The notes under the pieces: generated by a model
Databases searched by the model: none
What the model was told of the DNA's origin: nothing
What the model saw: the letters and a program-made list of their open reading frames with translations, nothing else
Position numbers and translations under genes: made by a program
Virus record (IMG/VR): IMGVR_UViG_3300045988_056969
Coordinates: 46,751-110,750 of that record
Length of the DNA stretch: 64,000 nt
Reading direction: 5' to 3' (one strand)
DNA from: a virus
Part shown: positions 23,414-40,619 of the stretch, piece by piece
Position numbering within the stretch: the first letter of the stretch is position 1
Layout: every line of letters begins with the position of its first letter

Positions 23414-23448
23414 CTTCATAGTTATATTATTTGTGATTATTACTTTTC

Positions 23449-25591: not shown

Positions 25592-25663
25592 CTTTCCTTA
25601 GTTCAATGGATAGAACCTCTGTCTTCTAAACAGATAATTCCAGTTCGAATCTGGAAGGAAAGA
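25592..25663 (+). tRNA. tRNA-Arg (anticodon TCT)
   Basis: CTTTCCT/AGGAAAG acceptor; D GTTC/GAAC; anticodon arm TCTGT-CTTCTAA-ACAGA; T-arm TCCAG-TTCGAAT-CTGGA. Confidence 0.75.
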
Positions 25664-25670
25664 CTATTAT

Positions 25671-25742
25671 TCTCCCCTTAGCTCAACGGTAGAGCTTTCG
25701 ACTTTTAATCGAAAGACAAGAGTTCGACTCTCTTAGGGAGAA
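25671..25742 (+). tRNA. tRNA-Lys (anticodon TTT)
   Basis: D GCTC/GAGC; anticodon arm TTCGA-CTTTTAA-TCGAA; T-loop TTCGACT; encoded CCA. Confidence 0.7.
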
Positions 25743-25763
25743 CCAACTTTAAATAATTAAGCT

Positions 25764-26137
25764 ATGATAAATGTAGACGAATTAAGAAACAAAAAGTAGC
25801 TCGGAGAAATAGGAGAGCGTATAGCCATTGGTGAATTATCAAAATATGGATTAGATATTTTATTACCAATGTCTGACAATCTACCATTTGATTTTGTTAT
25901 AATAACAAGTTTTACAGAACTTAGGTGAAAACTACTGCGAGTAAAACTGTAAATAACTCGTTGAACTTTAGTTTAACAAGTAATAATTATAACAAAGGGA
26001 CCGTTCACAAATACAACGAGGATGAAATAGATATTATGATATGTTGCGACCTTCATAACATCTATATATTTCCAGAATGTGATGTTGCTAATAGAAATTC
26101 TATTACTATTAGGGAGGAACCTCCAGCTAATAATTAG
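25764..26137 (+). pseudogene. YraN/UPF0102-like PD-(D/E)xK endonuclease paralog, apparently frameshifted; carries TAG at the motif-III position
   Basis: 25764-25927 gives MINVDELRNKK-Q-LGEIGERIAIGELSKYGLDILLP...FDFVIITSF, then TGA. A different frame (25925-26137) continues RT-Q-VKTTASKT..., parallel to the 27326-27727 protein. Confidence 0.4.
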
Positions 26138-26284
26138 ACAAAAGGTATAAACTTTGCAAAAGATTGCATCATATCTATAGAAAGATTAAATTATACTTTC
26201 TCTAAGATAGAGAAATAATTCCCTATTAATAGGGAAGTCTTTTATTCCGCTAGTAAACATTTGTTGTGAAACACGTGTTTGCAT

Positions 26285-26357
26285 CTGGGTATAGTCGAGT
26301 TGGTAAGATGCTACATTTGGGATGTAGAGACCGCAGGTTCGAGTCCTGCTATCCAGA
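26285..26357 (+). tRNA. tRNA-Pro (anticodon TGG); D-stem irregular
   Basis: CTGGGTA/TATCCAG acceptor; anticodon arm CTACA-TTTGGGA-TGTAG; T-arm GCAGG-TTCGAGT-CCTGC. Confidence 0.6.
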
Positions 26358-26569
26358 CAAGAAGTAATCAACATTCACTATTAGTACAGCAATTAGGACT
26401 GTAGGGTGCCTTTTAGATGAATCCCCGATTACTCCAATTAACAGAGGTGAGTTCCCTTAAAATTGTTACCACGCACTAGTGCGGCTATTAGCTACTAGAG
26501 GACTTGGGGTGCCAAGAGGAAGAATTGTAGTAGCTATGTTAATTAGAACAAATCTGTTAATTGCTTTAT

Positions 26570-26653
26570 GGGATAGCGCCAACGATGGAGAGTTGGGACG
26601 GACTGTAAATCCGTTGCCTTTAGGCTTAGTAGGTTCGAATCCTACCTATCCCA
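26570..26653 (+). tRNA. tRNA-Tyr (anticodon GTA), long variable arm
   Basis: GGGATAG/CTATCCC acceptor; anticodon arm ACGGA-CTGTAAA-TCCGT; 14-nt variable arm; T-arm GTAGG-TTCGAAT-CCTAC. Confidence 0.75.
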
Positions 26654-26680
26654 CAATTATGTAAAATAACTTACCAAAAG

Positions 26681-27052
26681 ATGATAAGAATTTCTAGAAT
26701 TGTAGCTAAGGATAGAATAGCAGATTTGCTAGACTTGAATTTCGTATCTAAGATAACTCTTAGACAAGGTAGACAAGGATTCAAAAATCCTGCAATTTGC
26801 AGAGTGGAAATCTATCTCCAAGTAGATAATGATACAGAATACTTTAATAGTGTTATGAGTAACATTGTTGACTGGGGAAAGGAGCGTAATTGTAATATTG
26901 CTGTTACCACAGCAAATATGGCTCTACATGATGGATTTATTAAAGAGTCTGCATTTGATGACTTTGATTATCCTATGCCAAAAAAGTATAAGGACTTATG
27001 CAGCGTATATTCTGACGAATATTTTAGACTATTTAATAGGAGAAAGATATAA
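26681..27052 (+). CDS. Hypothetical protein
   Basis: ORF track. Confidence 0.45.
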   Translation: MIRISRIVAKDRIADLLDLNFVSKITLRQGRQGFKNPAICRVEIYLQVDNDTEYFNSVMSNIVDWGKERNCNIAVTTANMALHDGFIKESAFDDFDYPMPKKYKDLCSVYSDEYFRLFNRRKI

Positions 27053-27265
27053 TGGAAGACAAATATGAAGGGCTATCTGATGAAGAACTCAAAGAAATCT
27101 TCGAAGATATGCAGGCAGACTATTGGATAGATTATTATCAATCTATCTATGAATAAAACCCTATTAGCGAGACCTAGGATATGGATTTTAGAAATATGTA
27201 TACCCACTGCATATAGGTTAGTCATATTTAAATGAGGAAACCAGGGTTCTCTACTAGGTCGATTC

Positions 27266-27300
27266 GGGATTGTAACCGGTAATTGGTAGCCGCGCAGATT
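27266..27300 (+). tRNA. 5' half (exon 1) of a split type-II tRNA: acceptor GGGATTG, D-arm, 5' strand of the anticodon stem GCAGA
   Basis: Pairs perfectly with the 3' half at 27826-27872 (acceptor 7/7 bp, anticodon stem GCAGA/TCTGC). Confidence 0.5.
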
Positions 27301-27325
27301 AAACTAATAATTAAAAATTAAATTT

Positions 27326-27727
27326 ATGGAATTAAGAGAATTTTCTACTTTTACTAAATAGGGAAATGTAGGACTTGCTTATGCTATTGCCTATTATTCT
27401 AAATTAGGGTATACTATTAGTATTCCCTTAACTGATTCACAAGATTATGACATAATAGTTGATACTGGAAATACCTTACTAAAAGTGTAGGTAAAGACTA
27501 CAACTTGTAGAAGAGATAGTGGAAACTACTAGTTAAACTTAAAAGTAAGTGGCGGAAATAGAAGCGGAACAGGAAAAGTAAAGACCTTCGATTTAAATAA
27601 ATGCGACCTGATATTCGCAATGACTGAGTAGTTTGAATTTTATTCTATTCCGAGGTCTGAAATTTCTGCAGCATCTTCTATTACTCTTGGAGAAAAGTAT
27701 TTACCTTTCAAGGTGTCTTTAATTTAA
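27326..27727 (+). CDS. YraN/UPF0102-like PD-(D/E)xK endonuclease (133 aa) with 4 in-frame TAG; sits inside the interrupted tRNA; absent from the ORF track
   Basis: MELREFSTFTK-Q-GNVGLAYAIAYYSKLGYTISIPLTDSQDYDIIVDTGNTLLKV-Q-VKTTT... fits the G.GE..A..YL...GY.IL...GEIDLI...VEVK pattern; TAA at 27725-27727. Confidence 0.55.
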
Positions 27728-27733
27728 TAAGAG

Positions 27734-27817
27734 GGGAGATTATTCCGTAGATGGTAGCGGGGCGCACTGTAAATGCGCTGCCTAACGGCTCGGGGTGTTC
27801 GACTCACTCATCTCCCA
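27734..27817 (+). tRNA. tRNA-Tyr-like (anticodon GTA) with a long variable arm, lying inside the tRNA-interrupting insertion
   Basis: GGGAGAT/ATCTCCC acceptor; anticodon arm GCGCA-CTGTAAA-TGCGC; T-arm GGGTG-TTCGACT-CACTC; weak D-stem. Confidence 0.5.
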
Positions 27818-27825
27818 CTACTAAT

Positions 27826-27872
27826 AAATCTGCTCTCTTTTGAGACTGGAGGTTCGAGTCCTCCCAATCCCA
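27826..27872 (+). tRNA. 3' half (exon 2) of the split tRNA: TCTGC anticodon-stem strand, variable hairpin CTCTC-ttt-GAGA, T-arm GGAGG-TTCGAGT-CCTCC, acceptor CAATCCC, discriminator A
   Basis: Complementary to exon 1 at 27266-27300. Confidence 0.5.
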
Positions 27873-28112
27873 CACTAATTTCAATATATTATGATGATAT
27901 TTGTATATTCAGCATTTATATACATAATAAGCATGTACATAGTTGGCCTTTATATGGCAGTAAATGAACGATTTGTTACAGTTAGAAGACTCGCAATAAT
28001 GGCATTACCAGTAATAAATACTATATTTGTTATTGTAATACTATTATTTGGTATTAAACCATTTATAAAAACAGTTATAAACGAATTTAAAGAAATTACA
28101 AAATGACAAATT

Positions 28113-28358
28113 ATGAGTACGGAGAAGGATACTTACCAGAAATCTGGTACTAGTGTAGTATTTCAAAAAGAAATTAAGCAGTGTAGAGAATGTCCGCACT
28201 GCTTAATTGTTCCTGACCCAGATCCTAATGACTGGTTCAATGATGACGACGAGAAAGCGCTCTGTAAGGAGTCTGAGAATAAACTAATTGAAGGAATGTT
28301 AAGACCTTACGAAAGGGTATTAATTCCAGATTGGTGTCCATTAAAAACTAATAAATAA
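28113..28358 (+). CDS. Small zinc-binding protein (CxxC...CxxC...C)
   Basis: ORF track. Confidence 0.45.
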   Translation: MSTEKDTYQKSGTSVVFQKEIKQCRECPHCLIVPDPDPNDWFNDDDEKALCKESENKLIEGMLRPYERVLIPDWCPLKTNK

Positions 28359-28359
28359 A

Positions 28360-28827
28360 ATGAATAAAATGAATAAAATGAATAAAACAAAAGCTTGCCT
28401 TGAAATAACTTTAGAACAGGCACGTAAATGGTATGAGAGTGGCAATGAAGACTTGAAAAAATTAGCTCTTACCGCTTTTAGTGAAGAAGTTCTAGTCCCT
28501 TCTCTTGGAGAAATATTAGAATCTGAAAAGGATTGGGATGTGCTATTTTTACCTTTAGGGATATCAGAGCAAACTAAGTCTCTAATTTGTCTACAAATAG
28601 TAGCTAATTACTTAAACAATGGTTGGAATAAAACAGAGAGTAACAGCGGTTATTTCCTTGGAAGGGGTTCTTCTCTATCTGGAAAGACGGAAACTGATAT
28701 AAAAGGAGTGTACGTCGTTATGCATCAAAACGTAAAATATCCAGGTGTTGTTTATTTTAGAACTGTAGCTGATGTACAGAAAGCGGTGAAGATACTAGGA
28801 AAGAAGTTGCTGCCGCTATTCGAATAA
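28360..28827 (+). CDS. Hypothetical protein (N-terminal MNK x3 repeat)
   Basis: ORF track. Confidence 0.45.
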   Translation: MNKMNKMNKTKACLEITLEQARKWYESGNEDLKKLALTAFSEEVLVPSLGEILESEKDWDVLFLPLGISEQTKSLICLQIVANYLNNGWNKTESNSGYFLGRGSSLSGKTETDIKGVYVVMHQNVKYPGVVYFRTVADVQKAVKILGKKLLPLFE

Positions 28828-28834
28828 TTTGATG

Positions 28835-28908
28835 GTGTTATTAGTTCAGTTGGTCAGAACGCTACATTGTGGCTGTAGAGGTCAGCGGTTCGAATCCGCT
28901 ATAACACC
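28835..28908 (+). tRNA. tRNA-His (anticodon GTG) with G-1 and discriminator C73
   Basis: G-1 then GTGTTAT/ATAACAC; D GTTC/GAAC; anticodon arm CTACA-TTGTGGC-TGTAG; T-arm AGCGG-TTCGAAT-CCGCT. Confidence 0.75.
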
Positions 28909-28938
28909 CAAACCATGTTTTATTAAATATTATAACAA

Positions 28939-29499
28939 ATGAAAAGAACTATTGAAATTGAATGTCCAGATGGTTATAAACCCATCTATAATGCCGAAAC
29001 TGGCAATGTTGAAATCGTTCCAGAAAACATTATGGGACGAATAAAGACCTATGAGGACGCTAGAGACTATCTTGGGTACTTATTTAATAGTGAAATCCAT
29101 TACACTGAATCTGTAAAGGCTCTAGCTAAGTTGCAAACAATTCTGGATGCGCTGAACGAAAAGCACAAGTTCAATCTGCTGACTGGTACTATATGGTATC
29201 CCTGGGTTCGCTTCTTTAGAATGAAATCAGTTCCGAAGGATGCAGAAGTCATTGGTCACTTCCGTTATCAGGGCGAGAAATTCGCGTTGGTGGGCGGCGA
29301 CGCGGCTATTGGCGGCACTGCGGGTCTCGGCTGTTTCTGTTCTGCCTTTGGCGTCGGCTTTGCCTATTCCAATGTTGGGATGCTTGCGTGCAAATCTGAA
29401 GAGATTGCCAAATACGTATCAACCCAGTTTGGAAAGCTAGTGTTCGATGCTTGTTTTGCAAGACATTTCAAGGGTGAAGAATTTGAATGGCTTGACTAA
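28939..29499 (+). CDS. DGR target protein 2 (186 aa) with VR2 at codons about 116-146 (FALVGGDAAIGGTAGLGCFCSAFGVGFAYSNVGM)
   Basis: 29286-29375 matches the reverse complement of TR with about 25 differences, all at TR adenines in the coding sense. Confidence 0.75.
   Translation: MKRTIEIECPDGYKPIYNAETGNVEIVPENIMGRIKTYEDARDYLGYLFNSEIHYTESVKALAKLQTILDALNEKHKFNLLTGTIWYPWVRFFRMKSVPKDAEVIGHFRYQGEKFALVGGDAAIGGTAGLGCFCSAFGVGFAYSNVGMLACKSEEIAKYVSTQFGKLVFDACFARHFKGEEFEWLD
29286..29375. repeat. DGR variable repeat 2 (VR2), about 27 kb from TR
   Basis: See the alignment against the reverse complement of TR 1732-1825. Confidence 0.75.
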
Positions 29500-29978
29500 T
29501 GAAAAAGTTCCTTGTAATTATGCTTGCTATGCTCTGGATGAGCGTAGCAGCTTTTTCTCAGATAACTATATCACAAGAAGACTATGATAAGTTGCCTAGT
29601 GATACTAGAACTCAAATTGAGAAGATAACAACAGAGAAAGCTATAAAGGGTGAAATCAAGGAAGTTTCTGAGTATGCTAACCTTGGTAAGGAAATAGGCG
29701 TGGCTGTTAATGAAACTCTTAAAGCAGTTGAAGATTCCGCCATCAGAATAGCAGACTCTAATTTGGGACAAACAGCAATAACTATCGTAGTATGGAAATT
29801 ACTTTACAAAGAGATAGCAGGTGTTGTAATAGGTATCATATTATTAGGAATATCCTTGTTTATGCTACTAACTGGTAGAGGAAAGCTATCTAAGAATGAC
29901 GAAGATGCTGGAGGTTGGATAAGTGTAGTAGGAGGAGCTGTATTCTTTATATCTTCAATGATTTGTATATTTGGCTGA
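29499..29978 (+). CDS. Membrane protein with a signal peptide; translationally coupled (ATGA) to DGR target 2
   Basis: ORF track; N-terminal signal MKKFLVIMLAMLWMSVAAFSQ and a C-terminal TM helix. Confidence 0.5.
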   Translation: MKKFLVIMLAMLWMSVAAFSQITISQEDYDKLPSDTRTQIEKITTEKAIKGEIKEVSEYANLGKEIGVAVNETLKAVEDSAIRIADSNLGQTAITIVVWKLLYKEIAGVVIGIILLGISLFMLLTGRGKLSKNDEDAGGWISVVGGAVFFISSMICIFG

Positions 29979-30072
29979 GGAGCAATCCAGGCTATAGGCT
30001 GGTGTATTCTAGCTATATTCTGTGTAATATTGCTTCTTGTATGATTTTTGGCTAGTCATAAGACTAGCTTTT

Positions 30073-30162
30073 GGAAGGGTGGCAGAGTCAGGTTTATTGC
30101 AACGCTCTTGAAAAGCGTCGGGCGTGATGAGCGTCCCCAGGGTTCGAATCCCTGTCCTTCCG
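30073..30162 (+). tRNA. tRNA-Ser (anticodon TGA), type II
   Basis: GGAAGGG/TCCTTCC; anticodon arm ACGCT-CTTGAAA-AGCGT; long variable arm; discriminator G. Confidence 0.75.
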
Positions 30163-30167
30163 CAAAT

Positions 30168-30241
30168 ACGTCCGTACTCAAGTGGTTTAAGAGGATAGTC
30201 TCCAAAACTATTATTCCTAGGTTCGAATCCTAGCGGGCGTG
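30168..30241 (+). tRNA. tRNA-Trp (anticodon CCA)
   Basis: ACGTCCG/CGGGCGT; anticodon arm ATAGT-CTCCAAA-ACTAT; T-arm CTAGG-TTCGAAT-CCTAG; discriminator G. Confidence 0.7.
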
Positions 30242-30264
30242 CTATTTAATTAATAAATTAGATT

Positions 30265-30492
30265 ATGAAAAGATTAGTAATTGTTTTATTGGGGCTTATG
30301 TTGCTATATAGCTGTGGTCCAGTACCAGAGTCAAAAGCGACTATGAGCGCTCCAGACGGGATTATTCCGTTTGATAACGCAGTTCACTTCAAGTACAAGA
30401 ATCATCAGTACATTAAGTTTGTTGAAGGATTTGGACAGTATAAGATTTCCGGAGTAGTTCATGACCCAGATTGTAAATATTGTAAGAGATGA
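30265..30492 (+). CDS. Small lipoprotein (signal plus Cys: LLYSCG)
   Basis: ORF track; lipobox. Confidence 0.5.
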   Translation: MKRLVIVLLGLMLLYSCGPVPESKATMSAPDGIIPFDNAVHFKYKNHQYIKFVEGFGQYKISGVVHDPDCKYCKR

Positions 30493-31007
30493 GTGAAGTG
30501 TATTATCTTTTGGCAGCCATTTCATATGGCATTTTTCTAGTTCAATTCATTTTATCTTGGTTTGGTGGAGACACTGACTTAGATGTTGATTTAGATGGAG
30601 AACTAGATATGAACGTGAGTGATATTGTCTCATTTAAGGGATTAATCCATTTTATAATGGGAGCTAGTGGATGGCTTTGTGTTAAGCAATCCGTATCTCA
30701 TTCTGTAGAATGGTATGATTATCTAATCGCATTAGTATGCGGTATTCTTTTCGTGGTTATACTTTACTACTTATATAAACTCTGTTTAAAACTCCAGCAT
30801 CAAGTTATTCCAGAAGAGGGTGAAGCCTTGATTGGAAGGGTTGGAATTATCACAGTTCCTTGTGAAAACCATTTCTTCATTACTATTGAAGTAAATGGAG
30901 GTTCTGAGGAAATTGTAGCCTATCCAGAAGTCCCAAAAATGGGATATATGGTTGGTACTCGTGTGGTAATTTCTAAATTTGAGAATGGAAAGTATTATTT
31001 TAACTAA
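30489..31007 (+). CDS. NfeD-like membrane protein (TM helices plus a C-terminal OB-fold beta-barrel)
   Basis: Hydrophobic N-terminus; C-terminus GRVGIITVP...GYMVGTRVVISKFENGKYYF; located directly upstream of the flotillin gene, as in yqiJ-yqiK / yuaF-floT operons. Confidence 0.6.
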   Translation: MSEVYYLLAAISYGIFLVQFILSWFGGDTDLDVDLDGELDMNVSDIVSFKGLIHFIMGASGWLCVKQSVSHSVEWYDYLIALVCGILFVVILYYLYKLCLKLQHQVIPEEGEALIGRVGIITVPCENHFFITIEVNGGSEEIVAYPEVPKMGYMVGTRVVISKFENGKYYFN

Positions 31008-31024
31008 AAAAGAATTTTTAAAAA

Positions 31025-32983
31025 ATGACAACAGAAACTCTTATTGTAGCAGGTGTTATTGTATTGCTAGTAGTTTTAACCTTTATTGGACTTTTGTCAC
31101 GGTATCGTAAGTGTGCTAGTGATGAAATCTTGGTTGTGTTTGGTAAGGCTGGCAAGAAAAAGGTAGTTAACGAAAAGACTGGAAAGTCGGAGGAAGTTAT
31201 TCTGCCGTCCAAAATCATTCATGGTGGAGGTACATTCGTAATGCCAGTAATTCAAGACTGGGCTAAAATGTCCTTGAAACCTATCCAAATTCAAGTAAAT
31301 GTTACTGGTGTTTCCAGTCAAATGATTAAGGTAACTATTCCTGTAACATTGACCACTGGTATTGGAACTACTCAAACATTAATGCAAAATGCTGCAAGTA
31401 GATTCTTAACAGCTAAAACTTCTGAAATCTCAGACCAAATCAAGGATATTCTCATTGGTGAAGTGAGAAGCTTGATGGCTACAATGACGATTGAGGAAAT
31501 TAACGCTGATAGAATCAAGTTTATCGGCAAAGCTAAGGAGAATATTGAGACCGAGTTAAATAAGGTAGGTTTCAGTATTATCAACATTAACAATGCTGAT
31601 ATTTCGGATGATGCAAACTATATCAAGAATCTAGGTCAGAAAGCTGCAACTAAAGCTCTTGCTCAGGCACAAGCAGACATTGCAGAAGAGAAAAAGAAAG
31701 GAGATATTCAGATTGCAGAAACCAACAAGCAACGTGAAATTGCTGTAGCAGACGCTGAGAAAGAGCGTGAAACTACTGTTGCTCAGACTAGACAAGAGCA
31801 AGAGGTTCGTGTGGCAGAGATTAACCAGGAGAAGGAAATCAAACTTGCAGAAGCTGAGAAGAATAAGCAATCAGGTATTGCTAATCAGAAAGCTGAACAA
31901 GCTGCCAATATTGCTAAAGCTAATACTGCAGCGGAATCAGAGAAAGCTAAAGCAGAAGCTGAGAAAATTTCAGCTATAGCTAAAGCTCAAGCAGAAGCCG
32001 ATTCTAACAGAGCAGAGTCTGAATCACTGGCTGAGGCTAATGTAGCTAAGGCTAAAGCAGAAGCTGACTCTAAGAAAGCAGAAGCAGAAGCAGAGAAACA
32101 AACTCGTATTGCTCAGGCTAAACAAAAACAGGAAGCTGAGACGCAAAAGGCAATTAACGAACAGGAAGCTGCAGTTGCTAAGTATGAGTCAGACAAGCGT
32201 GTAAAGGCAGCTGAAGCTGATAAGATTGCAGGAGTGGCAGAACAAAATGCCACAATTGAAGTCTCTAAAGCTAAGGGAGAGGCCGAGAAAGCTAAGGCTG
32301 AAGCTGAAAAGGTAGCAGGAACTTCTAAGGTAGAAGCTCAAATGACTATCGAGAAAACTAAGCAAGAAAAGCAACTGGAAGTAAACGAAGCAGCTGCATT
32401 AGCTATGGAAGCTAAGCTTCATGCTGAGACGATTGTTCCTGCTCAAAAGGAGAAGGAACGTATCACGATTGAAGCAGAAGCTGTTAAGCAGAAAGCTGTA
32501 CTTGAAGCAGAAGCTAAGGCTGCTGAAATTCTGAAAGAAGCAGAAGCTAAAGCGAATGCTACAAAGTTGCAGCTAGAAGCCGAAGCTGAAGGTACAAGAA
32601 AGAAACTGCTTGCTGAAGCTGAGGGTAAGAGAGCATCTTTGATGGCTGAGGCTGATAAAGTCCAGGCTATTGAAATGGCTCCTGCTCTGGCAGTCCAGAA
32701 GATGATTGAATCTGGCTTGACTCCTGAAATGGTGGTTCAGTACAAGACAGTTGACCAGTTGACAGGTATTGCAGAAGCATCTGCTCAGATGTTTGAACAC
32801 GTTCACCTTGGACAGGTTACTGTTTATGGTAATGAGAATACCGCTGGTAATTTCATGGCTAAGACTGCTGAGAACTTGAATCCTGCTCTTGACTTATTAC
32901 GTTCTATTCCTTTCGCTGACACAGTAAAGGAAATGTTCGGAAAGAAGCAAGTAGAAGCTACTGAGTTTGAAGAAGTGAAGTAA
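31025..32983 (+). CDS. Flotillin-like SPFH/band-7 protein (652 aa) with a long Ala/Glu/Lys-rich coiled coil
   Basis: N-terminal TM segment plus SPFH core; EA/AEAEK repeats typical of FloT/YqiK. Confidence 0.8.
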   Translation: MTTETLIVAGVIVLLVVLTFIGLLSRYRKCASDEILVVFGKAGKKKVVNEKTGKSEEVILPSKIIHGGGTFVMPVIQDWAKMSLKPIQIQVNVTGVSSQMIKVTIPVTLTTGIGTTQTLMQNAASRFLTAKTSEISDQIKDILIGEVRSLMATMTIEEINADRIKFIGKAKENIETELNKVGFSIININNADISDDANYIKNLGQKAATKALAQAQADIAEEKKKGDIQIAETNKQREIAVADAEKERETTVAQTRQEQEVRVAEINQEKEIKLAEAEKNKQSGIANQKAEQAANIAKANTAAESEKAKAEAEKISAIAKAQAEADSNRAESESLAEANVAKAKAEADSKKAEAEAEKQTRIAQAKQKQEAETQKAINEQEAAVAKYESDKRVKAAEADKIAGVAEQNATIEVSKAKGEAEKAKAEAEKVAGTSKVEAQMTIEKTKQEKQLEVNEAAALAMEAKLHAETIVPAQKEKERITIEAEAVKQKAVLEAEAKAAEILKEAEAKANATKLQLEAEAEGTRKKLLAEAEGKRASLMAEADKVQAIEMAPALAVQKMIESGLTPEMVVQYKTVDQLTGIAEASAQMFEHVHLGQVTVYGNENTAGNFMAKTAENLNPALDLLRSIPFADTVKEMFGKKQVEATEFEEVK

Positions 32984-32988
32984 TCACA

Positions 32989-33038
32989 GCGAAGGGGCTT
33001 TACAAAGAATTAGTAAAGTATAACAAAAGCCCCTTCGC
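32989..33038 (+). terminator. Large stem-loop GCGAAGGGGCTTT...AAAGCCCCTTCGC after the flotillin gene
   Basis: Perfect 13-bp inverted repeat right after the TAA stop. Confidence 0.4.
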
Positions 33039-33043
33039 AATTT

Positions 33044-33131
33044 GGAGGTATGGGTGAGCGGTCTAAACCAGAGTCCTGCTAAGACTCCGGGCCTCAAAAG
33101 GGTCCCGCTGGTTCGAATCCAGCTGCCTCCG
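33044..33131 (+). tRNA. tRNA-Ser (anticodon GCT), type II
   Basis: GGAGGTA/TGCCTCC; anticodon arm GAGTC-CTGCTAA-GACTC; long variable arm; T-arm GCTGG-TTCGAAT-CCAGC; discriminator G. Confidence 0.75.
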
Positions 33132-33155
33132 CATTAACTTAAATAATTATTAGAT

Positions 33156-33575
33156 ATGAGCGAATGGAAATACATAGATTCAATCGCAGAGCTATCCGAT
33201 TTTGAATGTGCACACTGCGATACAAGAGATTTTTATATGGTTACTTATGATACTATAAGTCAACCTTGGAAAGTATTAAATAAATTCCTGAAAAAGAATA
33301 GAATTATAGTAGAACAATGTTCGTTTAATAAGGACGAGATTATTCCCTTACTAAAGAGTTTAGAGACTGCATCGGGTGGTGAGGGAGACTGGAGGCATTT
33401 GGTATTGGATTCTATTGACCATTGGTGGATAAAGTATATCCGTTTCCAGAGACTTAGTAATGGACAATACTTTTGTTTTACTGATTCTGCTGATACTATT
33501 ATTCCGCTTTATAAGGATAAACTTAAGGCAGAGTTCGTGAATCAGGATGAAAATCATAAAGTTCATGGAAGATAA
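33156..33575 (+). CDS. Hypothetical protein
   Basis: ORF track. Confidence 0.45.
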   Translation: MSEWKYIDSIAELSDFECAHCDTRDFYMVTYDTISQPWKVLNKFLKKNRIIVEQCSFNKDEIIPLLKSLETASGGEGDWRHLVLDSIDHWWIKYIRFQRLSNGQYFCFTDSADTIIPLYKDKLKAEFVNQDENHKVHGR

Positions 33576-33801
33576 AATTGAAATATTTAGAAGCCTTCAT
33601 AAAGAATTTCTCAGTATGCTTCTAGATGATACTTGGCTATGTGAGGAGCCTATTGAACTAGCAGAAGTAGAAGCGTGTTGGCAGTGGGCTATAGAAGTAG
33701 GAGAAGAAGTTGTTCCGTTAGAAGACTTTGAAAAAGAATTTAAGTTTTCTTTACAGGATTTAACTAACTGGTGGAACAAAAAAATACTAGAATTGGAATA
33801 A
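33547..33801 (+). CDS. Hypothetical protein
   Basis: ORF track. Confidence 0.4.
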   Translation: MKIIKFMEDKIEIFRSLHKEFLSMLLDDTWLCEEPIELAEVEACWQWAIEVGEEVVPLEDFEKEFKFSLQDLTNWWNKKILELE

Positions 33802-34056
33802 CTGATAGTTGAAAGTGCACTTAGTAGACTATCGACTGCATAGACCCCTTATGTAGTATATAGAGTGGATGGCTGAGGGATAAATCCAGCAAAACGTTAT
33901 TAGTAGTGCACAATGCTAATAACCTTAAGTCCGTTGAAGTCGCCTTAGTACGTGCGTAACATACTCGGAAATGCATAACTTGCTTTGGGACTCTTTTCCA
34001 TAGATGAAGGTTTTATCCGTTTACTTCATCTATGCCTTTACATTATAAACGGATAT

Positions 34057-34133
34057 GGGACGATAGCTCAGTAGGTAGAGCGCTGGACTGAAAATCCAGG
34101 ACGTTAGCGGCAGTTCGATCCTGCCTCGTCCCA
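34057..34133 (+). tRNA. tRNA-Phe (anticodon GAA); unusual 9-nt variable region
   Basis: GGGACGA/TCGTCCC; D GCTC/GAGC; anticodon arm CTGGA-CTGAAAA-TCCAG; T-arm GGCAG-TTCGATC-CTGCC. Confidence 0.7.
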
Positions 34134-34164
34134 CTTGCATTGTGTGTTTTTCATGGTAAATAGA

Positions 34165-34190
34165 CTTAGTGGTTCGTGAGAATAGCTAAG
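34165..34190 (+). other. Conserved stem-loop motif, copy b (CTTAG-TGGTTCGTGAGAATAG-CTAAG), 7 nt upstream of the next tRNA
   Basis: Same loop sequence as copies a and c with a different stem. Confidence 0.5.
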
Positions 34191-34197
34191 CCAAAAT

Positions 34198-34270
34198 TGG
34201 GCTATGGTGTAATGGTTAGCACTACAGATTTTGATTCTGTCAGTCTAGGTTCGAGTCCCTCCTACCCTAC
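34198..34270 (+). tRNA. tRNA-Gln-like (anticodon TTG); D-arm identical to the CTA suppressor; T-arm and acceptor irregular, so possibly degenerate
   Basis: TGGGCTATGGTGTAATGGTTAGCAC...ACAGA-TTTTGAT-TCTGT; acceptor TGGGCTA/TACCCTA with one C-C mismatch; T-stem pairs only 2-3 bp. Confidence 0.45.
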
Positions 34271-34455
34271 AACTTTTATTTATTAAGTAATATGAAAGAG
34301 TTAAGTGAAATTATTCAGGAGATGGTAGACAATGGCAATTCCATGGGTCAAATGGACCTAAAAACTGCCATAGTGTTTGTTACAGAGGCTTACGAATCTG
34401 GTATGGAAAAGGCTCGTTCTCTCATAACTAATGAACATAACGAGGAGGATTACTA

Positions 34456-35868
34456 ATGACCGTAGAAGAATTAGAAGGTAAGCTGACTAATATCTACCAT
34501 GAATTTGCTGAAACAATCTCTGAAAATGAGACTGATGAGCAAATAGTTGCCCGTTCTAAAGAGTGGTTTGTAAAAAGACTCTCAGAGGAAACTGATAACA
34601 AAGAAGCTATAGAATCTATAGCTAATCAATTAGTAGGATGTCTCAAACAGGCATCTGTTTTAAGTAACCTAGAAAAAGAAAAAATGAACAAAGTTTGGAT
34701 GTGTTCTGGGTCTACATATACCCAGGTAAGCTCAGGCTATAGCGTTGAGCAGTCTCTCCCAGTTGGAATCTACAGTATTTGTCTGACAATGACAGGTTAT
34801 CACCTAGACAGATATGCGGATAAGTTTGTATTCCCGTACAAAATGTATGGTTTGCAGAACGAGTTTATTGACCATGTAATTAAGACGTATCACGCTACAG
34901 AAGGCAATCTCGGAATTATGCTTACTGGTACAAAGGGCACTGGAAAGACTGTTACCGCTAAGGAACTAGCTAACAAGCTAAATCTGCCCATCATTATCGT
35001 AAAGGATATGGGAGACCATAATCAATCTATGATTGAGTTCCTTTCTGGTATTGAAGGAGATTGCATTCTGTTCTTGGATGAATTTGAAAAGAATTTCAGT
35101 GAATCGGATTCTACTATCTTGCAAATCATGGACGGTGTTTACAACTCTAAGTATCGCAAGGTTTTCCTGCTTACTACTAATGCCATGACCATCAATGAGA
35201 ATATGGTAGGACGTCCGTCTAGAATCCGTTATGTCAAGGAATTTGGCAACTTGGATTTGAAGGTTGTGAACGAATATCTGGACGACGCACTTCAAGTGCC
35301 GGAAGCTCGTCAAGATTTGCTTGATTTCATTGATTCTTTGACTATATCTACTATTGATATTCTCAAAACTATAGTTAATGAGGTCAATATTCACGGTATA
35401 GAAGGATTGAGAAGAGCTAAGAGCTTCTTCAATGTAGTAACTAATGAGTATGACTATTCCTGCGTCAGAGGTTATGCATATGCTTATGAGATTTCTGCTG
35501 ATAAGAATAAATTCTCTATTGAAGAGTTCTCTAAAGCTGTTGAGAGATTCAACAATCCGATGCCAAAGCCCATTGTAGACGATGAGGATAACTGTACTGT
35601 TGAGGAAAGAAAAGCTCTTAACGAGTATTATGAATATCGCCGCCACAATTTCCACAGTCTGTCATATTTCTATGTATCCTCGGATATTAAGTTCGCAAAT
35701 CTGTCAGTTGGAGACGACTTCTATGATGAGGAAATCATTGCGATTGACAAAAAGTTGGGAATCGTAGTTACTAAGGAAAATAATGAGGTTAACTACTACT
35801 GGGTTAAAGATCCAAATAGTAAACCGTCTCTGTATCGTAGAGGTACTTACAACTCTTTGGTACTATAA
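34456..35868 (+). CDS. AAA+ ATPase (470 aa), function unknown
   Basis: Walker A GTKGTGKT; Walker B ILFLDEFEK. Confidence 0.6.
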   Translation: MTVEELEGKLTNIYHEFAETISENETDEQIVARSKEWFVKRLSEETDNKEAIESIANQLVGCLKQASVLSNLEKEKMNKVWMCSGSTYTQVSSGYSVEQSLPVGIYSICLTMTGYHLDRYADKFVFPYKMYGLQNEFIDHVIKTYHATEGNLGIMLTGTKGTGKTVTAKELANKLNLPIIIVKDMGDHNQSMIEFLSGIEGDCILFLDEFEKNFSESDSTILQIMDGVYNSKYRKVFLLTTNAMTINENMVGRPSRIRYVKEFGNLDLKVVNEYLDDALQVPEARQDLLDFIDSLTISTIDILKTIVNEVNIHGIEGLRRAKSFFNVVTNEYDYSCVRGYAYAYEISADKNKFSIEEFSKAVERFNNPMPKPIVDDEDNCTVEERKALNEYYEYRRHNFHSLSYFYVSSDIKFANLSVGDDFYDEEIIAIDKKLGIVVTKENNEVNYYWVKDPNSKPSLYRRGTYNSLVL

Positions 35869-35895
35869 AACTTGGGGAGCTAGTCTCCCCTTTAT

Positions 35896-35969
35896 GTCTA
35901 GATGCCCGAGCGGTCTAAGGGAACGGTCTGCAAAACCGTGTTTCGTGGGTTCGAATCCCACTCTAGATT
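35896..35969 (+). tRNA. tRNA-Cys (anticodon GCA), discriminator U
   Basis: GTCTAGA/TCTAGAT; anticodon arm ACGGT-CTGCAAA-ACCGT; T-arm GTGGG-TTCGAAT-CCCAC. Confidence 0.7.
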
Positions 35970-35989
35970 CTACACTAATCTTATTGCTT

Positions 35990-36418
35990 ATGGATAGAGA
36001 ATTGAGAAGAGAACTTTCTAAAAGAAAGTGGATTTCGAGAGCTAAAAAGGTTTACAACGCTTGCGGTAAATTTTACGTACCTGTTGCCGGGATTAAAGCC
36101 AATGTAAGGTATAATGTTCCTATAATAAGGAATAAGGCGTTGAAGGTCTGTGAGTCAATTACGGATTTCCTTGATAGTTCTAAATACGCAAAGATGCTTA
36201 AGAATTGTACTTCTCCTTATAGAAGCAGAATGATGCAATATGAATACAAGAAAGAGAATAGAAAGGACAGATATAAAGCAAAAAGAGATATTCAAGAAGG
36301 TATTCAAGAATATGAATCTAGGGACAATCTTTCGTGTTCATCCTGCATTTTCTATGATAAAGGCTTTTGCGAAAAGGGATTATTAATGACTGAAAACTGC
36401 CCAGAATATTGGGATTAA
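35990..36418 (+). CDS. Hypothetical Cys-containing protein (track ORF trimmed to the ATG downstream of the tRNA)
   Basis: ORF 35783-36418 overlaps tRNA-Cys; the first ATG after the tRNA is at 35990. Confidence 0.45.
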   Translation: MDRELRRELSKRKWISRAKKVYNACGKFYVPVAGIKANVRYNVPIIRNKALKVCESITDFLDSSKYAKMLKNCTSPYRSRMMQYEYKKENRKDRYKAKRDIQEGIQEYESRDNLSCSSCIFYDKGFCEKGLLMTENCPEYWD

Positions 36419-36421
36419 AGT

Positions 36422-36781
36422 ATGGACAAGTATATTAATGGAAGTTTAGTAAAGAGAGTTTTAGTTTTTAAAACTAGAAAGCATCCTGATTGGGTACATT
36501 ATGTGAACGATTACCGATTCTTGTTTTGGAAAATACATCGAGATTATTGGTATTATTGGGACCCATGTTTTGGAACTTATACGGAAGAAAAAATGATTTC
36601 ATCTTTAGAGAAGAGATATGCCTTCTACAAGGATGGAATAGTATATCAGAAACCTCATATCATTTTAGAGTTCTCTAAAAGACATGATGAATCTATCTAT
36701 TTTGATAGTGACGAAGAAATGGAGGGATGGTTTGAATCCTTCATGGAAGAATTTGGAAAACCGTTTATTTACATAGACTAA
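36422..36781 (+). CDS. Hypothetical protein
   Basis: ORF track. Confidence 0.45.
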   Translation: MDKYINGSLVKRVLVFKTRKHPDWVHYVNDYRFLFWKIHRDYWYYWDPCFGTYTEEKMISSLEKRYAFYKDGIVYQKPHIILEFSKRHDESIYFDSDEEMEGWFESFMEEFGKPFIYID

Positions 36782-36902
36782 TACCTTTATCCCAGTTTAG
36801 AGCTTAGCTCAAATAGTGAATAATAGTAGCTATTGGTTAAAACGAGGTGGAGTGCCAGACGAAAGACTGGAATTAACATAGTTTAACTTTGAATCTCTGA
36901 CT

Positions 36903-37247
36903 ATGCGGAGTGTTATTATGGCAGAATTGATTTTCTTAGCTAATGGAAAATGCGACTTGAAGTTCCACGCTCATCCCAAGAATTTCAAAAGGGTTGAGAA
37001 GTTCAACTACAAAAAGAACTTTTTCAAGGTTTACGTTGACCGAAACGACAGCGTTTACGAGATAACTCGCTGCGAGGTGGTTACATGGAAAACCATAGAG
37101 AAAGGCAAGAAGAAATTTAACGTCCCTGACGAGGTGAAAGAAACTCGTGATGCTCACTTGTTTGACAAAATTAAGGGGAATCCGTTCAAAATCGCTATTA
37201 CTAAGATAGCTGGCGAGATTGATATGCAGGAGCTGTTATCTGAGTAA
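36903..37247 (+). CDS. Hypothetical protein
   Basis: ORF track. Confidence 0.45.
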   Translation: MRSVIMAELIFLANGKCDLKFHAHPKNFKRVEKFNYKKNFFKVYVDRNDSVYEITRCEVVTWKTIEKGKKKFNVPDEVKETRDAHLFDKIKGNPFKIAITKIAGEIDMQELLSE

Positions 37248-37282
37248 TTCGTTTAGGAGAGTATCGTAAAACTCTCCATTAT

Positions 37283-37357
37283 GCAGGTGTGGTGTTAATG
37301 GATTGAGCACGCCAGACTTCCAATCTGGAGGGGAGAGTTCGAGTCTCTCTACCTGCA
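37283..37357 (+). tRNA. tRNA-Gly (anticodon TCC)
   Basis: GCAGGTG/TACCTGC; D GTGT/GCAC; anticodon arm CCAGA-CTTCCAA-TCTGG; T-arm GAGAG-TTCGAGT-CTCTC. Confidence 0.75.
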
Positions 37358-37362
37358 CATTT

Positions 37363-37434
37363 GTGGGCATAGCACAACGGTTAGTGCATCGGCTTGCCAT
37401 GCCGAGGATGTGAGTTCGATTCTCATTACCTACT
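37363..37434 (+). tRNA. tRNA-Gly (anticodon GCC); one acceptor mismatch
   Basis: GTGGGCA/TACCTAC; D GCAC/GTGC; anticodon arm TCGGC-TTGCCAT-GCCGA; T-arm GTGAG-TTCGATT-CTCAT. Confidence 0.6.
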
Positions 37435-37449
37435 CAAAATTTAAGTTTT

Positions 37450-37674
37450 ATGAAAATAAAGTGTACAGTATGTAATAAAGAATTTTATTATGGAGACCAT
37501 AACTCTCCAATGTTTATTGATGAGGTTTGGAACAAGATAATAAATTACTTTAAGCTAACCAATTTTGAAAAAGAAGCTGCAAAGAAATTCTCCTCTTATT
37601 ACAAAGGGGAGGTAAAGATTATTATCCAGACCACCATGTGTTTATCTGTAGCGAATGTGCGGAGAAGGCTCTAG
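37450..37674 (+). CDS. Small zinc-ribbon protein; the C-terminal CxxC continues in the -1 frame (frameshift or sequencing error)
   Basis: CTVC...then HHVFICSECAEKALGREITDKD is encoded in another frame around 37615. Confidence 0.35.
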   Translation: MKIKCTVCNKEFYYGDHNSPMFIDEVWNKIINYFKLTNFEKEAAKKFSSYYKGEVKIIIQTTMCLSVANVRRRL

Positions 37675-37752
37675 GTAGGGAAATAACTGATAAGGATATT
37701 AATGATTCATTATTTAATATCCCATTTAGAGAGAAGTACTTTAAATCTTAAT

Positions 37753-37837
37753 ATCCGTGTGGGTGAATGGTTTAGCCATCAGTCTGCAAAACTGAAAAGA
37801 GAAATCTTTAATGAGGGTTCGAATCCCTCCACGGATT
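37753..37837 (+). tRNA. Atypical type-II tRNA with anticodon GCA (Cys), a 17-nt variable arm and discriminator U
   Basis: ATCCGTG/CACGGAT perfect acceptor; anticodon arm TCAGT-CTGCAAA-ACTGA; variable hairpin AAAGA-gaaa-TCTTT; T-arm GAGGG-TTCGAAT-CCCTC. Confidence 0.55.
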
Positions 37838-37848
37838 CTAATTTTAAA

Positions 37849-38493
37849 TTTAAAAATATGGCATATATTTATTGCATTACAAATTTAATTAATAGCAAGC
37901 GATACGTAGGAAAAACTACTACTTCTATAGAAGAGCGCTGGAAGGAACATTGTTATGACTTTTAGAAAGAAAGATGCAACAAAAGACCTTTATATGATGC
38001 CATGAATAAGTATGGTGTTGAGAACTTTATGATAGAGGAATTGGAATATGTAGATAGTAACTCTGAATTATCTGAAAGAGAAATCTATTGGATAAAAGAG
38101 CTAGGAACTTATGGTTCTAATGGGTACAATGCCTCTAAAGGAGGAGATGGCACTATTCTATACAATCATAGTGAAATTGTAGAATTAGCTAGATTGGGAT
38201 ATACTAGTTCTTAGATACAAGAAAAAATAGGGTGCTGTAAAGACACTATTTACAAAGTTTTGAAGGCAAATAATATAAAAATTAGAAAAAGTAACGCAAA
38301 GTTAATTGCTTAGTATGACTTAGCAGGTAATTTTATACAGGTATTCTTTGGTTCCAGAGAAGCTTAGGAATGGTTAATTAATAACGGAATTACTGACAAT
38401 AAATCTGCATAGAGTCATATTATAGGATGCTGTAAGAATAAAACCAAATCATAGTATGGCTACATTTGGAAATATCTTCCAGAGCCTATTTAA
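37849..38493 (+). CDS. GIY-YIG homing endonuclease (about 214 aa) with 6 in-frame TAG; track fragments 37702-37965 and 38002-38214 are pieces of it
   Basis: MAYIYCITNLINSKRYVGKTT...EERWKEHCYDF-Q-KERC...NKYGVENFMIEELE...REIYWIKELGT..GYN is collinear with I-TevI. The C-terminus IGCCKDTIYKVLK...KSQYGYIW (NUMOD-type DNA-binding region) is reached only by reading through TAG at 38212, 38338, 38386, 38428 and 38464. Confidence 0.7.
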
Positions 38494-38610
38494 TCTTTAA
38501 ATCACTGTTTCGACATTTTCAGTCTAAATGCCGTGTCTGAAGACGTTACCAACCAGTCGTGCTATACGGTTAGAATAGTCCGTGCCTCACTGGTGATAGA
38601 GGCATCCCTG

Positions 38611-38634
38611 GGTAGCGGATGTAAAGTGGCTACC
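38611..38634 (+). other. Stem-loop GGTAGC-ggatgtaaagtg-GCTACC immediately 5' of a tRNA (same stem as motif copy c, different loop)
   Basis: Direct reading. Confidence 0.35.
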
Positions 38635-38639
38635 AATAT

Positions 38640-38718
38640 CGTGGAGTAGAGAAGTGGTCATCTCGCTAGGCTCATAACCTAGAAATCGTCATAAACGGTT
38701 CGAATCCTACCTCCGCAA
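38640..38718 (+). tRNA. Initiator-like tRNA-Met (anticodon CAT; C1 x A72 mismatch); T-arm poorly paired, so possibly degenerate
   Basis: CGTGGAG/CTCCGCA-A; D GAGA/TCTC; anticodon arm CTAGG-CTCATAA-CCTAG; the T region AAACGGTTCGAATCCTAC pairs poorly. Confidence 0.4.
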
Positions 38719-38962
38719 CGAAACTCCTTTTGTGGCCCTGAATTAGATTAATTATTAACAATTTTAAACTTTGATGTTATGAAGAAAGTAATTAATGTTG
38801 TGAAGAAAGCTGCTAAGTGGTATTTTGAACAGAGTTCTAAGAGCTATACATGGTTAGTTTCTGGAACTATTCCGCCTCCTTATAGAGGTCTAGAGTAAAG
38901 ATACTACTAAAAGGTAAGTACCAAAGGGGTACTTATCTACACCCGTGGAGAAAATTAACTAT

Positions 38963-39034
38963 TGGGGTATAGTTCAAAGGTCAGAACTTTTGACTGTTAA
39001 TCAAAGAATCATGGTTCGAGTCCATGTGCCCCAG
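38963..39034 (+). tRNA. tRNA-Asn (anticodon GTT)
   Basis: TGGGGTA/TGCCCCA; D GTTC/GAAC; anticodon arm TTTGA-CTGTTAA-TCAAA; T-arm CATGG-TTCGAGT-CCATG. Confidence 0.75.
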
Positions 39035-39559
39035 CTATTGACCTTATATTAGATTATGCATCAGTGTGATTATTGTTGTTGGTACTACAGTGGAAATTGT
39101 GATTGTCCATATGTAATGAAGAAACAAGCGTGTGAAAATGCTTTGAAAACTAAAGAGAGAAATGAAAGACCTATTAGAAAAGTACAAAATGTTTCAAACT
39201 CCAAAACTAGCTAATGAGATTTCATGGAAAGACATGAAGGAATTTAACTCTTATATGAAAGAAGTAGTTCGTGATTATAAGATTAAACAGGCTAAATCAA
39301 TTCAGAGTGCTAGAAACGTAATAATATCCTGACCTGGCAAGGTAAAAATCCATTCGGGGTTTAAGTTGAAGCCAGTCCCTGCGAAATCATAGAGACCTTT
39401 TCTGACACGATAGTCGATGAACTGAGAGTAGCATGGTTGCGGACTTATGCTACTAGAACATGATTCAAACAAAAAAACTTATCTGGTGTTGTTAAGTTGT
39501 GGAATCTTAACAGTGGAAATTTATGGGTATGTCACCAATTAAAAAGAAAATCCCAAAAA

Positions 39560-39632
39560 TGGGCCGTTAGCTCAAATGGCTAGAGCGCTGGTTTTGCACA
39601 CCGGAAGATAGGGTTCGAGTCCCTGCGTGTCC
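39560..39632 (+). tRNA. tRNA-Ala (anticodon TGC) with G3-U70, but acceptor positions 5-7 are not complementary
   Basis: GGGCCGT vs CGTGTCC; D GCTC/GAGC; anticodon arm CTGGT-TTTGCAC-ACCGG; T-arm TAGGG-TTCGAGT-CCCTG. Confidence 0.5.
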
Positions 39633-39841
39633 ACAAACTTTATTTAAAAAATTATGAAAGTATATGTAGTTGTAGTAAATTATCACCAGCTAATGCTCCT
39701 CAAAATTATGAAACTGATTGCCAAATCTTCTTAGACAAGAAACAGGCAGAGAAGTATAAAGAGGCTAAGGAAAAAGAGTTTCCTATTAGATGGGGAGGAG
39801 AGTATAATCATTGTAAACTAATTAAAAAGCATTTGTAATAT

Positions 39842-40616: not shown

Positions 40617-40619
40617 GAT

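Follow-up and report, generated by a model that had tools for sequence, protein, structure and literature searches.

A flotillin gene and its NfeD-like partner in a large crAss-like gut phage: a conserved two-gene unit of apparent Bacteroidales ancestry with a putative membrane-organising role

Why should a phage carry genes resembling a bacterial membrane-microdomain operon? The question is raised by a stretch of viral DNA of 64,000 nucleotides (nt) (IMG/VR record IMGVR_UViG_3300045988_056969, positions 46,751 to 110,750), the whole of which is referred to here as the window, in which three adjacent open reading frames (ORFs) occupy positions 30265-32983 of the plus strand. An original prediction described these as encoding a small lipoprotein, an NfeD-like membrane protein and a flotillin of 652 amino acids (aa), and the coordinates of all three ORFs proved exact. 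The analysis presented here indicates that the last two genes are probably an SPFH2-NfeD2-type two-gene operon of Bacteroidales ancestry, captured and stably kept by crAss-like gut phages of ~165-193 kb, in which it would have a membrane-organising role.

The third ORF (31025..32983, + strand, ATG...TAA) encodes the 652-aa protein, which its sequence features identify as a flotillin: an N-terminal hydrophobic membrane anchor (aa 1-29) is followed by an SPFH domain, a long EA-rich helix and a flotillin-type C-terminal tail (aa 551-652). The Pfam Band_7/SPFH model (PF01145) matches residues 47-223 (nt 31163-31693) with an E value of 1.3e-19 and 71.3 bits, against a gathering cutoff of 23.6. Between aa 201 and 550 (nt 31625-32674), E, A, K and Q make up 62-74% of residues and Pro and Gly are nearly absent, a composition predicted to give a coiled coil; of the features first proposed for this protein, the SPFH domain and the EA-rich region are both borne out. 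The anchor and the EA-rich region are among the features that define prokaryotic flotillins, or p-flotillins (prokaryotic SPFH2 proteins; PMC4312047). A phmmer search of PDB sequences returned matches exclusively to eukaryotic flotillin-1/2 (E 2e-17 to 1e-16) and the top NCBIfam family was FloT (E=1e-38), placing the protein closest to the flotillin branch and not to stomatin, HflK/C or prohibitin. Because it has a curated domain match, hundreds of homologues and a ratio of non-synonymous to synonymous substitution rates (dN/dS) of ~0.1, the ORF is considered a real gene and not a chance reading frame.

The second ORF (30489..31007, + strand, ATG...TAA) encodes a 172-aa protein for which direct Pfam, NCBIfam, PHROG and PADLOC searches gave no significant match. 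An AlphaFold2 (AF2) model of this protein (predicted local distance difference test score, pLDDT, 79.6) places transmembrane (TM) helices at aa 2-24, 49-70 and 75-102, then a short linker and five strands at aa 118-171 (nt 30840-31001); the strands form a C-terminal domain with the beta-barrel fold, resembling the oligonucleotide/oligosaccharide-binding (OB) fold, that is expected of NfeD proteins. In flotillin-associated NfeD2 proteins, reported to be ~140-150 aa long (Hinderhofer et al. 2009, PMC2636767), three stretches of hydrophobic sequence are joined by a short linker to a domain made up entirely of beta strands; the phage protein fits this architecture, its length of 172 aa exceeding the published 140-150 aa. 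The ClpP-like serine protease domain of the long NfeD1b type is absent from it in both the Pfam search and the AF2 model, and the protein would appear to be of the short NfeD type. An exhaustive profile search gathered a family of 1,016 representatives (clustered at 50% identity) at E <= 1e-3. When a profile of the distant members was searched against PDB sequences, YuaF came out on top with E = 0.008, the match spanning the beta domain; a profile of the close family returned TM-helix noise and nothing else. The Pfam NfeD model PF01957 finds three of the 27 close relatives, at E>=0.039 at best, and two of the 37 distant ones reach E=4.4e-6. Divergence of this order is already known for NfeD2 proteins, YuaF being just 21% identical to PH0471 (PMC2636767). 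The gene also adjoins, and is co-inherited with, an SPFH gene. On the basis of fold, profile and synteny, and not of a Pfam match, the 172-aa protein is identified as an NfeD-like flotillin partner with three TM helices and an OB-like beta domain, and the arrangement of the yuaF-floT and yqiJ-yqiK type, in which such a partner directly precedes the flotillin, holds for this locus.

Alignment of the partner family also revealed that the loop joining TM1 to TM2 (aa 27-45 of the partner; nt 30567-30623, + strand) is acidic and carries a conserved DxDxDG-like motif. Residue D32 is invariant, D34, D36 and G37 occur in at least 90% of members, and an invariant SFKG..HF comes next. The D-rich loop is retained in distant and bacterial relatives of the partner, has low pLDDT in the AF2 model, and in its residue pattern resembles a cation-binding loop.

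The first ORF of the three (30265..30492, + strand, ATG...TGA), encoding a putative lipoprotein of 75 aa, shares an ATGA overlap with the partner gene, an arrangement of translational coupling, and 17 A/T-rich nt separate the partner gene from that of the flotillin. The cassette is bounded by tRNA genes found with ARAGORN, tRNA-Ser(TGA) and tRNA-Trp(CCA) upstream (30073..30242, + strand) and tRNA-Ser(GCT) downstream (33044..33132, + strand); in a relative (L004) both upstream tRNAs and the downstream tRNA-Ser are kept in the same places. Right after the flotillin stop codon, 5 nt short of the tRNA-Ser, sequence inspection and RNA folding revealed a stem-loop (32989..33038, + strand) with a perfect 13-bp stem and a 24-nt loop (dG -23 kcal/mol, z=-7.2; equalled by none of 200 shuffles). 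It is present in relatives, one of which (L021) carries a compensatory G-C to A-U change. The lack of a U-tract sets it apart from canonical intrinsic terminators; it likely marks the transcript end or serves as a processing or stability element. Terminator-like matches in a scan of the sequence mostly fall within coding sequence. The cassette agrees in GC content and strand with the surrounding phage arm, and its neighbourhood consists of tRNAs and of replication and nucleotide-metabolism genes. Just 5' of the tRNA pair is a gene for a 159-aa protein (29499-29978, + strand; PHROG 33832, E=6e-6) with a signal-like segment at its N-terminus and hydrophobic stretches towards its C-terminus; of 51 related loci, 34 have this gene together with the cassette, and its product is predicted to be another small envelope protein.

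As to the source of the pair, a scan of contigs for cellular relatives, using the bacterial flotillin of locus L059 as query, led to metagenome-assembled genomes of Paludibacteraceae from gut and rumen (loci L059 and L063-L070). A 220-aa member of the partner family (P0353) was found on a chromosome directly 5' of a 508-aa Band_7 flotillin, the pair being situated between ribF and rpoN, with a Na+/H+ exchanger and an alpha-2-macroglobulin as further neighbours. The phage and Paludibacteraceae flotillins are 40% identical over the SPFH domain and the first part of the coiled coil and 31% over the remainder, and the partners 43% across the membrane part. Three insertions set the phage flotillin apart from the bacterial one, of ~100 aa in the coiled coil, ~14 aa near the SPFH start and 22 aa near the C-terminus; enlarged coiled coils are a known variation among SPFH2 proteins (PMC2636767). 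Judged by these relatives, the flotillin-NfeD pair is of cellular, Bacteroidales ancestry.

A pair so clearly of cellular origin, of a flotillin kind that is rare among deposited phages, could be regarded as a passenger, or as an artefact of assembly or binning of bacterial DNA, without any role in infection. Conservation speaks otherwise. The flotillin was found on 51 IMG/VR viral contigs, mostly of 90-193 kb, at 58-99% identity, and the partner lies directly 5' of it in 50 of these loci. In a wider viral scan with a divergent alignment, which retrieved 242 viral relatives and from which 80 loci were kept (40-99% flotillin identity), the partner is 4-85 nt upstream of the flotillin in every one of the 80. 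The pair occurs on at least 80 independent viral contigs, from many samples, always in the same setting and flanked by tRNAs and genes of the phage, and it is present also in the distantly related phage csAssE-Sib (OR575929.1), whose flotillin is 39% identical to that of the window over 636 aa and whose partner is 38% identical. In informative comparisons with relatives, the flotillin has a dN/dS of 0.07-0.17 and the partner one of 0.13-0.33; both are functional, long-retained phage genes under purifying selection. The phage-specific insertions, and the fit of GC content and strand to the phage arm, also disagree with recent bacterial DNA or misbinning. On the conservation and dN/dS data the passenger or artefact explanation is effectively refuted, and we give it hardly any credence.

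Within deposited phages this flotillin matches 7 of 50,697 records, two of them complete phage genomes, and megablast of the cassette against the same set gave one 600-bp fragment match and no more. Outside this phage lineage, flotillins of the kind are rare. To that extent the claim that such a phage-borne module is unusual was justified; phage flotillins were, however, already present in GenBank, in csAssE-Sib and in the T5-like Vibrio phage KIT04, where the gene is annotated as such.

The small lipoprotein had been taken to be a member of the operon. Its 75-aa product has a hydrophobic segment at aa 2-22 followed by LLYSC, in which the -2 residue (Y/F/C) is non-canonical; an L-x-[S/G]-C lipobox-like motif, including the Cys, is kept across all full-length alleles of the type found in the window (type A). 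No significant Pfam, PHROG or NCBIfam match was obtained for it. As its family comprises 60 homologous clusters, on contigs of up to ~190 kb, and its dN/dS is 0.12-0.22, the ORF is a real gene. Type A is found, though, in just 19 of the 51 viral loci. In many close relatives an unrelated 72-aa ORF with a signal peptide and Cys fills the slot, with the same ATGA overlap with the partner gene, and in divergent clades and in csAssE-Sib there is no lipoprotein in the slot. Compared with a close relative (L013), the flotillin and partner of the window show synonymous divergence (dS) of 0.06-0.10 and the lipoprotein a dS of 0.9, and for this reason the slot is regarded as a recombination cassette. 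The original prediction was correct in so far as the ORF is real and bears a lipobox-like motif, but the gene is not a conserved member of the operon: the small lipoprotein is an optional, exchangeable accessory, and the conserved unit consists of two genes, not three.

Several further features of the slot were noted. Across loci L008-L058 it is a mosaic, two unrelated alleles being swapped between otherwise near-identical genomes. In csAssE-Sib (L001, 5182-5433) it holds an acyl-carrier-protein-like ORF (Pfam PP-binding, E=3e-6; DSLD motif) that overlaps the start of the partner gene. Identities are also discordant between close relatives, one (L018) having a flotillin 97% and a partner 76% identical to those of the window and another (L055) 89% and 99%, respectively, which implies recombination breakpoints within the cassette.

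The slot brings to mind superinfection or competitor exclusion, in which a membrane scaffold and an exchangeable lipoprotein would alter the envelope and block adsorption or DNA injection by other phages. Swapping small-lipoprotein slots are typical of exclusion and moron loci, and Llp of phage T5 and Cor of phages phi80 and N15 are small exclusion lipoproteins. Here, two unrelated lipoprotein alleles are each translationally coupled to the partner and are swapped (dS 0.9 against 0.06-0.10); the genome encodes further envelope proteins, an OmpA-like outer-membrane protein (OMP) and an SPFH lipoprotein, and a T5-like Vibrio phage also has a flotillin. The flotillin and partner core itself, however, is strongly constrained by purifying selection and changes slowly (dN/dS 0.07-0.17), unlike genes engaged in an arms race, and the pair is retained in clades that lack the lipoprotein. 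No cassette protein has a meaningful match among PADLOC models, a result on which the idea of a known defence system was also dropped, and we know of no exclusion system that includes a flotillin. Exclusion is considered unlikely, if the most plausible of the alternatives to a membrane-organising role.

The late and structural genes at 315-15625 (- strand) of the window are open only when TAG is read as sense, with 4-28 in-frame TAGs per gene. In the right arm, where the flotillin cassette is located, the code is the standard one. It has been reported that in crAss-like phages recoding is restricted to late genes, and that genomes are largest in the Zeta group (Yutin et al. 2021, PMC7886860). 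From the location of the cassette in the standard-code arm, and the restriction of recoding to late genes, we infer that the pair would be expressed before the late genes.

In the membrane-organising reading that we prefer, the N-terminal anchor of the flotillin would then insert into the host cytoplasmic membrane, and the protein would form oligomers, shaped as a large ring or dome, on the side facing the cytoplasm, as solved SPFH proteins do. Ringed, domed membrane complexes are formed by SPFH proteins (PMC12624060), prokaryotic flotillins possess an N-terminal hairpin anchor and form MDa oligomers (PMC4312047), and the flotillin operon of Bacillus subtilis is under envelope-stress control (PMC2636767). 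The NfeD-like protein would be located within the enclosed membrane patch, its OB domain touching the flotillin. Such an assembly may organise or stabilise the inner membrane through microdomain scaffolding and the buffering of fluidity and stress, and the infected cell would thereby remain energised and whole while a long productive infection runs its course. In effect, the phage would provide a second copy of a function by which the host maintains its envelope. The coiled-coil expansion of ~100 aa could give the cage a greater height than the cellular homologue reaches, and the upstream lipoprotein would be a dispensable, swappable accessory outside the conserved machine.

The same expression before the late genes would also suit a role in counter-defence, in which the cage would shield or repair the inner membrane against membrane-permeabilising abortive-infection (Abi) effectors until progeny are made. 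Strict retention of the pair across a broad phage lineage would fit such a role, bacterial flotillin and SPFH systems have been tied to envelope stress (PMC2636767), and an SPFH protein has been linked to the recruitment of PspA (PMC8581546). This support is wholly circumstantial, however, and the neighbourhood of the cassette holds no associated defence or anti-defence genes. Nor, to our knowledge, is any anti-defence protein an SPFH protein. We view counter-defence as distinctly unlikely.

An alternative built on the partner is that the pair corrals a host membrane protease of the FtsH or HtpX type, in the manner of HflK/C-FtsH or QmcA, and so spares phage membrane or regulatory proteins. 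NfeD has been annotated as 'implicated in regulation of membrane protease activity' (title of PDB entry 3cp0), FtsH is an interaction partner of SPFH1 and SPFH3 proteins (PMC2636767), and SPFH cages enclose membrane patches (PMC12624060). Yet the partner is of the short type (172 aa) and has no ClpP-like domain, the SPFH protein falls in the flotillin branch and not with HflK/C or stomatin, and no protease gene is adjacent. A protease-regulating cage is accordingly judged improbable, a little more so than counter-defence.

A reading that goes beyond a spare copy of a host housekeeping scaffold can also be envisaged. The extra coiled coil, the SPFH insertion and the acidic loop of the partner might together give a larger, phage-specific and possibly cation-responsive cage on the inner membrane, a dedicated platform that might, for instance, set aside a membrane patch for genome replication or virion assembly or serve as a shield against pore-forming Abi effectors. 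We put this forward as a speculative proposal, to be given about as little weight as counter-defence.

Several observations weigh against a membrane-organising operon of the SPFH2-NfeD2 type, or limit what can be made of it. The flotillin does not reach the FloT equivalog model NF058507 (133.6 bits against a 700-bit cutoff), and so far below that threshold it is to be taken as a member of the flotillin family and not as a FloT orthologue. Pfam Flot (PF15975) gave no match to it at E<=0.1. The flotillin of csAssE-Sib does reach PF15975 (38 bits, cutoff 27) and the homologue from Paludibacteraceae scores below the threshold; the C-termini of the window flotillin and its homologues align, with AEAEG motifs in common. 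For the partner, the Pfam NfeD model PF01957 finds no match in the window protein, so that of the two domains originally proposed the SPFH domain was recovered by formal search while NfeD stands by fold, profile and synteny. A sigma-70 promoter scan gave 8 sites where 11 are expected by chance, with a model that is unsuited to Bacteroidota. As the AF2 monomer model of the flotillin is poor (pLDDT 50.6, predicted template modelling score (pTM) 0.21, from a 19-sequence alignment), the oligomer geometry proposed above is pure analogy. The function of bacterial flotillin-NfeD pairs is itself ill-defined and floT mutants are mild, which leaves 'membrane maintenance' weakly constrained. Why phages have SPFH genes at all has been called unclear (PMC13239085).

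The portal (8985-11228, - strand) and the large terminase subunit TerL (11348-13729, - strand), both in the TAG-recoded arm, were identified by PHROG matches, and the nearest named TerL relatives belong to Crassvirales (26-29% identity); on these markers the window is probably from a large crAss-like phage, as the original prediction had implied. Reading TAG as sense in the left arm raises the number of ORFs of at least 200 aa from 4 (947 aa) to 11 (5,164 aa). ARAGORN found 21 tRNAs in the window, among them an amber-suppressor tRNA with anticodon CTA (20304-20376, - strand) and a suppressor-like tRNA of the ochre type with anticodon TTA (23344-23414, + strand), the latter occurring also in a relative (L004, 2473-2543). 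No ORF in the window grows longer when TAA is read as sense, and TAA is the stop codon of both the partner gene and the flotillin gene; the TTA-anticodon tRNA might read TAG by wobble. Nineteen of the tRNA genes are strewn singly or in pairs among protein genes over ~18 kb of the standard-code arm (25592-43312, + strand) and do not form a single block; several delimit gene cassettes, the flotillin unit being one.

A diversity-generating retroelement (DGR) is located at the left end. Its reverse transcriptase gene (315-1622, - strand; PHROG 1423, E=2e-89) has four in-frame TAGs. An intergenic template repeat of 98 nt (1730-1827) is 76% identical to a variable repeat (1931-2028) at the 3' end of a tail-fibre-like gene (1906-3732, - strand), and 23 of the 24 mismatches are at template adenines on the coding strand. 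DGRs with amber-containing reverse transcriptase genes are known from Zeta crAss-like phages (PMC12386605).

About 15 kb downstream of the cassette lie two envelope genes that the original prediction had mentioned alongside it. Both identifications were confirmed. The gene at 48408-49235 (+ strand) encodes a second SPFH protein, of 275 aa and lipoprotein type (Band_7, E=3.4e-22; PHROG 200 'lipoprotein', E=3.7e-60), which is 58-68% identical to products annotated as SPFH/band 7 or prohibitin in classic Crassvirales (cr126_1, cr128_1, IAS virus and PhiCrAssBcn), its best matches; that at 46954-47970 (+ strand) encodes the OmpA-like OMP (Pfam OMP_b-brl and OmpA). The second SPFH gene is independent and widespread, matching 565 deposited phage records, and nothing other than a shared genome links it or the OMP gene to the flotillin pair as one module. 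A 115-aa ORF (49232-49579) considered as an NfeD partner for the second SPFH protein was rejected, being a multi-TM protein with no domain match. The OMP has full-length homologues (~30% identity) in Prevotella Lak megaphages and a few gut contigs, with 19 phage records in total, a distribution that hints at a shared envelope strategy for hosts of the Bacteroidales/Prevotella type. Near the second SPFH gene, host-like cargo includes an RNase H (46097-46558, + strand; E=5e-25) and a DUF5662 protein (49552-50076, + strand; E=5e-29). A nicotinamide/nicotinate phosphoribosyltransferase-like gene (50090-51614, + strand) may be split across two overlapping ORFs, 50090-50839 and 50805-51614; the Pfam scan, which covered the first of them, gave NAMPT_N and a partial NAPRTase match.

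The SPFH2-NfeD2 operon type, SPFH genes in phages and GenBank-annotated phage flotillins are already known. In the library searched, no paper was found that joins crAss-like phages with flotillin, nor any on csAssE-Sib, and SPFH, flotillin and NfeD go unmentioned in the crAss-like genomics papers PMC7886860 and PMC12386605. What is new is that the partner is recognised as NfeD-like and found strictly coupled with the flotillin over a broad lineage of large gut phages, that the pair apparently originates from Bacteroidales and that the lipoprotein is an accessory. The finding overturns nothing, the type of system being familiar, but it reveals that the full unit of flotillin and partner, and not just an SPFH domain, is preserved under purifying selection throughout a lineage of large crAss-like phages that are abundant in the gut. 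The pair is a concrete two-protein system that could be expressed heterologously to probe the role of a flotillin cage during infection. A partner family of more than 1,000 representatives, missed as NfeD by Pfam, NCBIfam and PHROG models, will be useful for the annotation of Bacteroidales and their phages. Should the phage-specific cage prove true, no earlier case would be known of a virus that employs an SPFH cage as an infection organelle in bacteria.

Among known systems, the classical point of reference is FloT of Bacillus subtilis, a protein of ~509 aa. The NCBIfam FloT model covers 477 positions, compared with 652 aa for the phage flotillin, which is not a FloT orthologue. FloT is encoded in the operon yuaF-floT(yuaG)-yuaI, an SPFH2/NfeD2 system under sigmaW and envelope-stress control (PMC2636767); the phage unit differs in being phage-encoded, in lacking a yuaI-like acetyltransferase gene and in having, in some genomes, a small lipoprotein gene upstream, and sigmaW control is inapplicable to a phage. 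In yqiJ-yqiK of E. coli, a gene for an NfeD-type inner-membrane protein likewise precedes a flotillin-type SPFH gene (PMC2636767); the likeness is one of operon logic, as the phage partner has no direct match to YqiJ-type Pfam models. The QmcA-YbbJ complex of E. coli (SPFH1-NfeD1, PDB accession no. 8Z5G) belongs to the stomatin branch, and the partner matches it far more weakly than it does isolated NfeD C-terminal domains.

SPFH genes have been noted in phages since 2006 (PMC1524935). The SPFH/Band-7 lipoproteins of PHROG 200, found in the T4-like phages 44RR, Aeh1 and RB43 and in cr126_1 and IAS virus, are phage-encoded like the flotillin described here. They are of ~275 aa and have a lipoprotein signal, but no long coiled coil, flotillin tail or NfeD partner, and their type is common (565 records) where the flotillin type is rare (7 records). 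In Vibrio phage KIT04, a candidate NfeD gene upstream of the flotillin was rejected, as it encodes an 82-aa membrane protein; this has no beta domain, so KIT04 does not have the pair.

The same adjacent pair is seen in csAssE-Sib, a 151-kb genome from human gut (flotillin WOZ57345, partner WOZ57346). There the flotillin is 566 aa long, a PP-binding gene and no lipoprotein gene lies 5' of the pair, and the partner is annotated just as 'transmembrane protein'. The closest cellular relatives found are those of Paludibacteraceae, which share gene order and spacing with the phage pair and whose partner is also without a Pfam match; they differ in a shorter flotillin (508 aa), a longer partner (220 aa) and a chromosomal setting.

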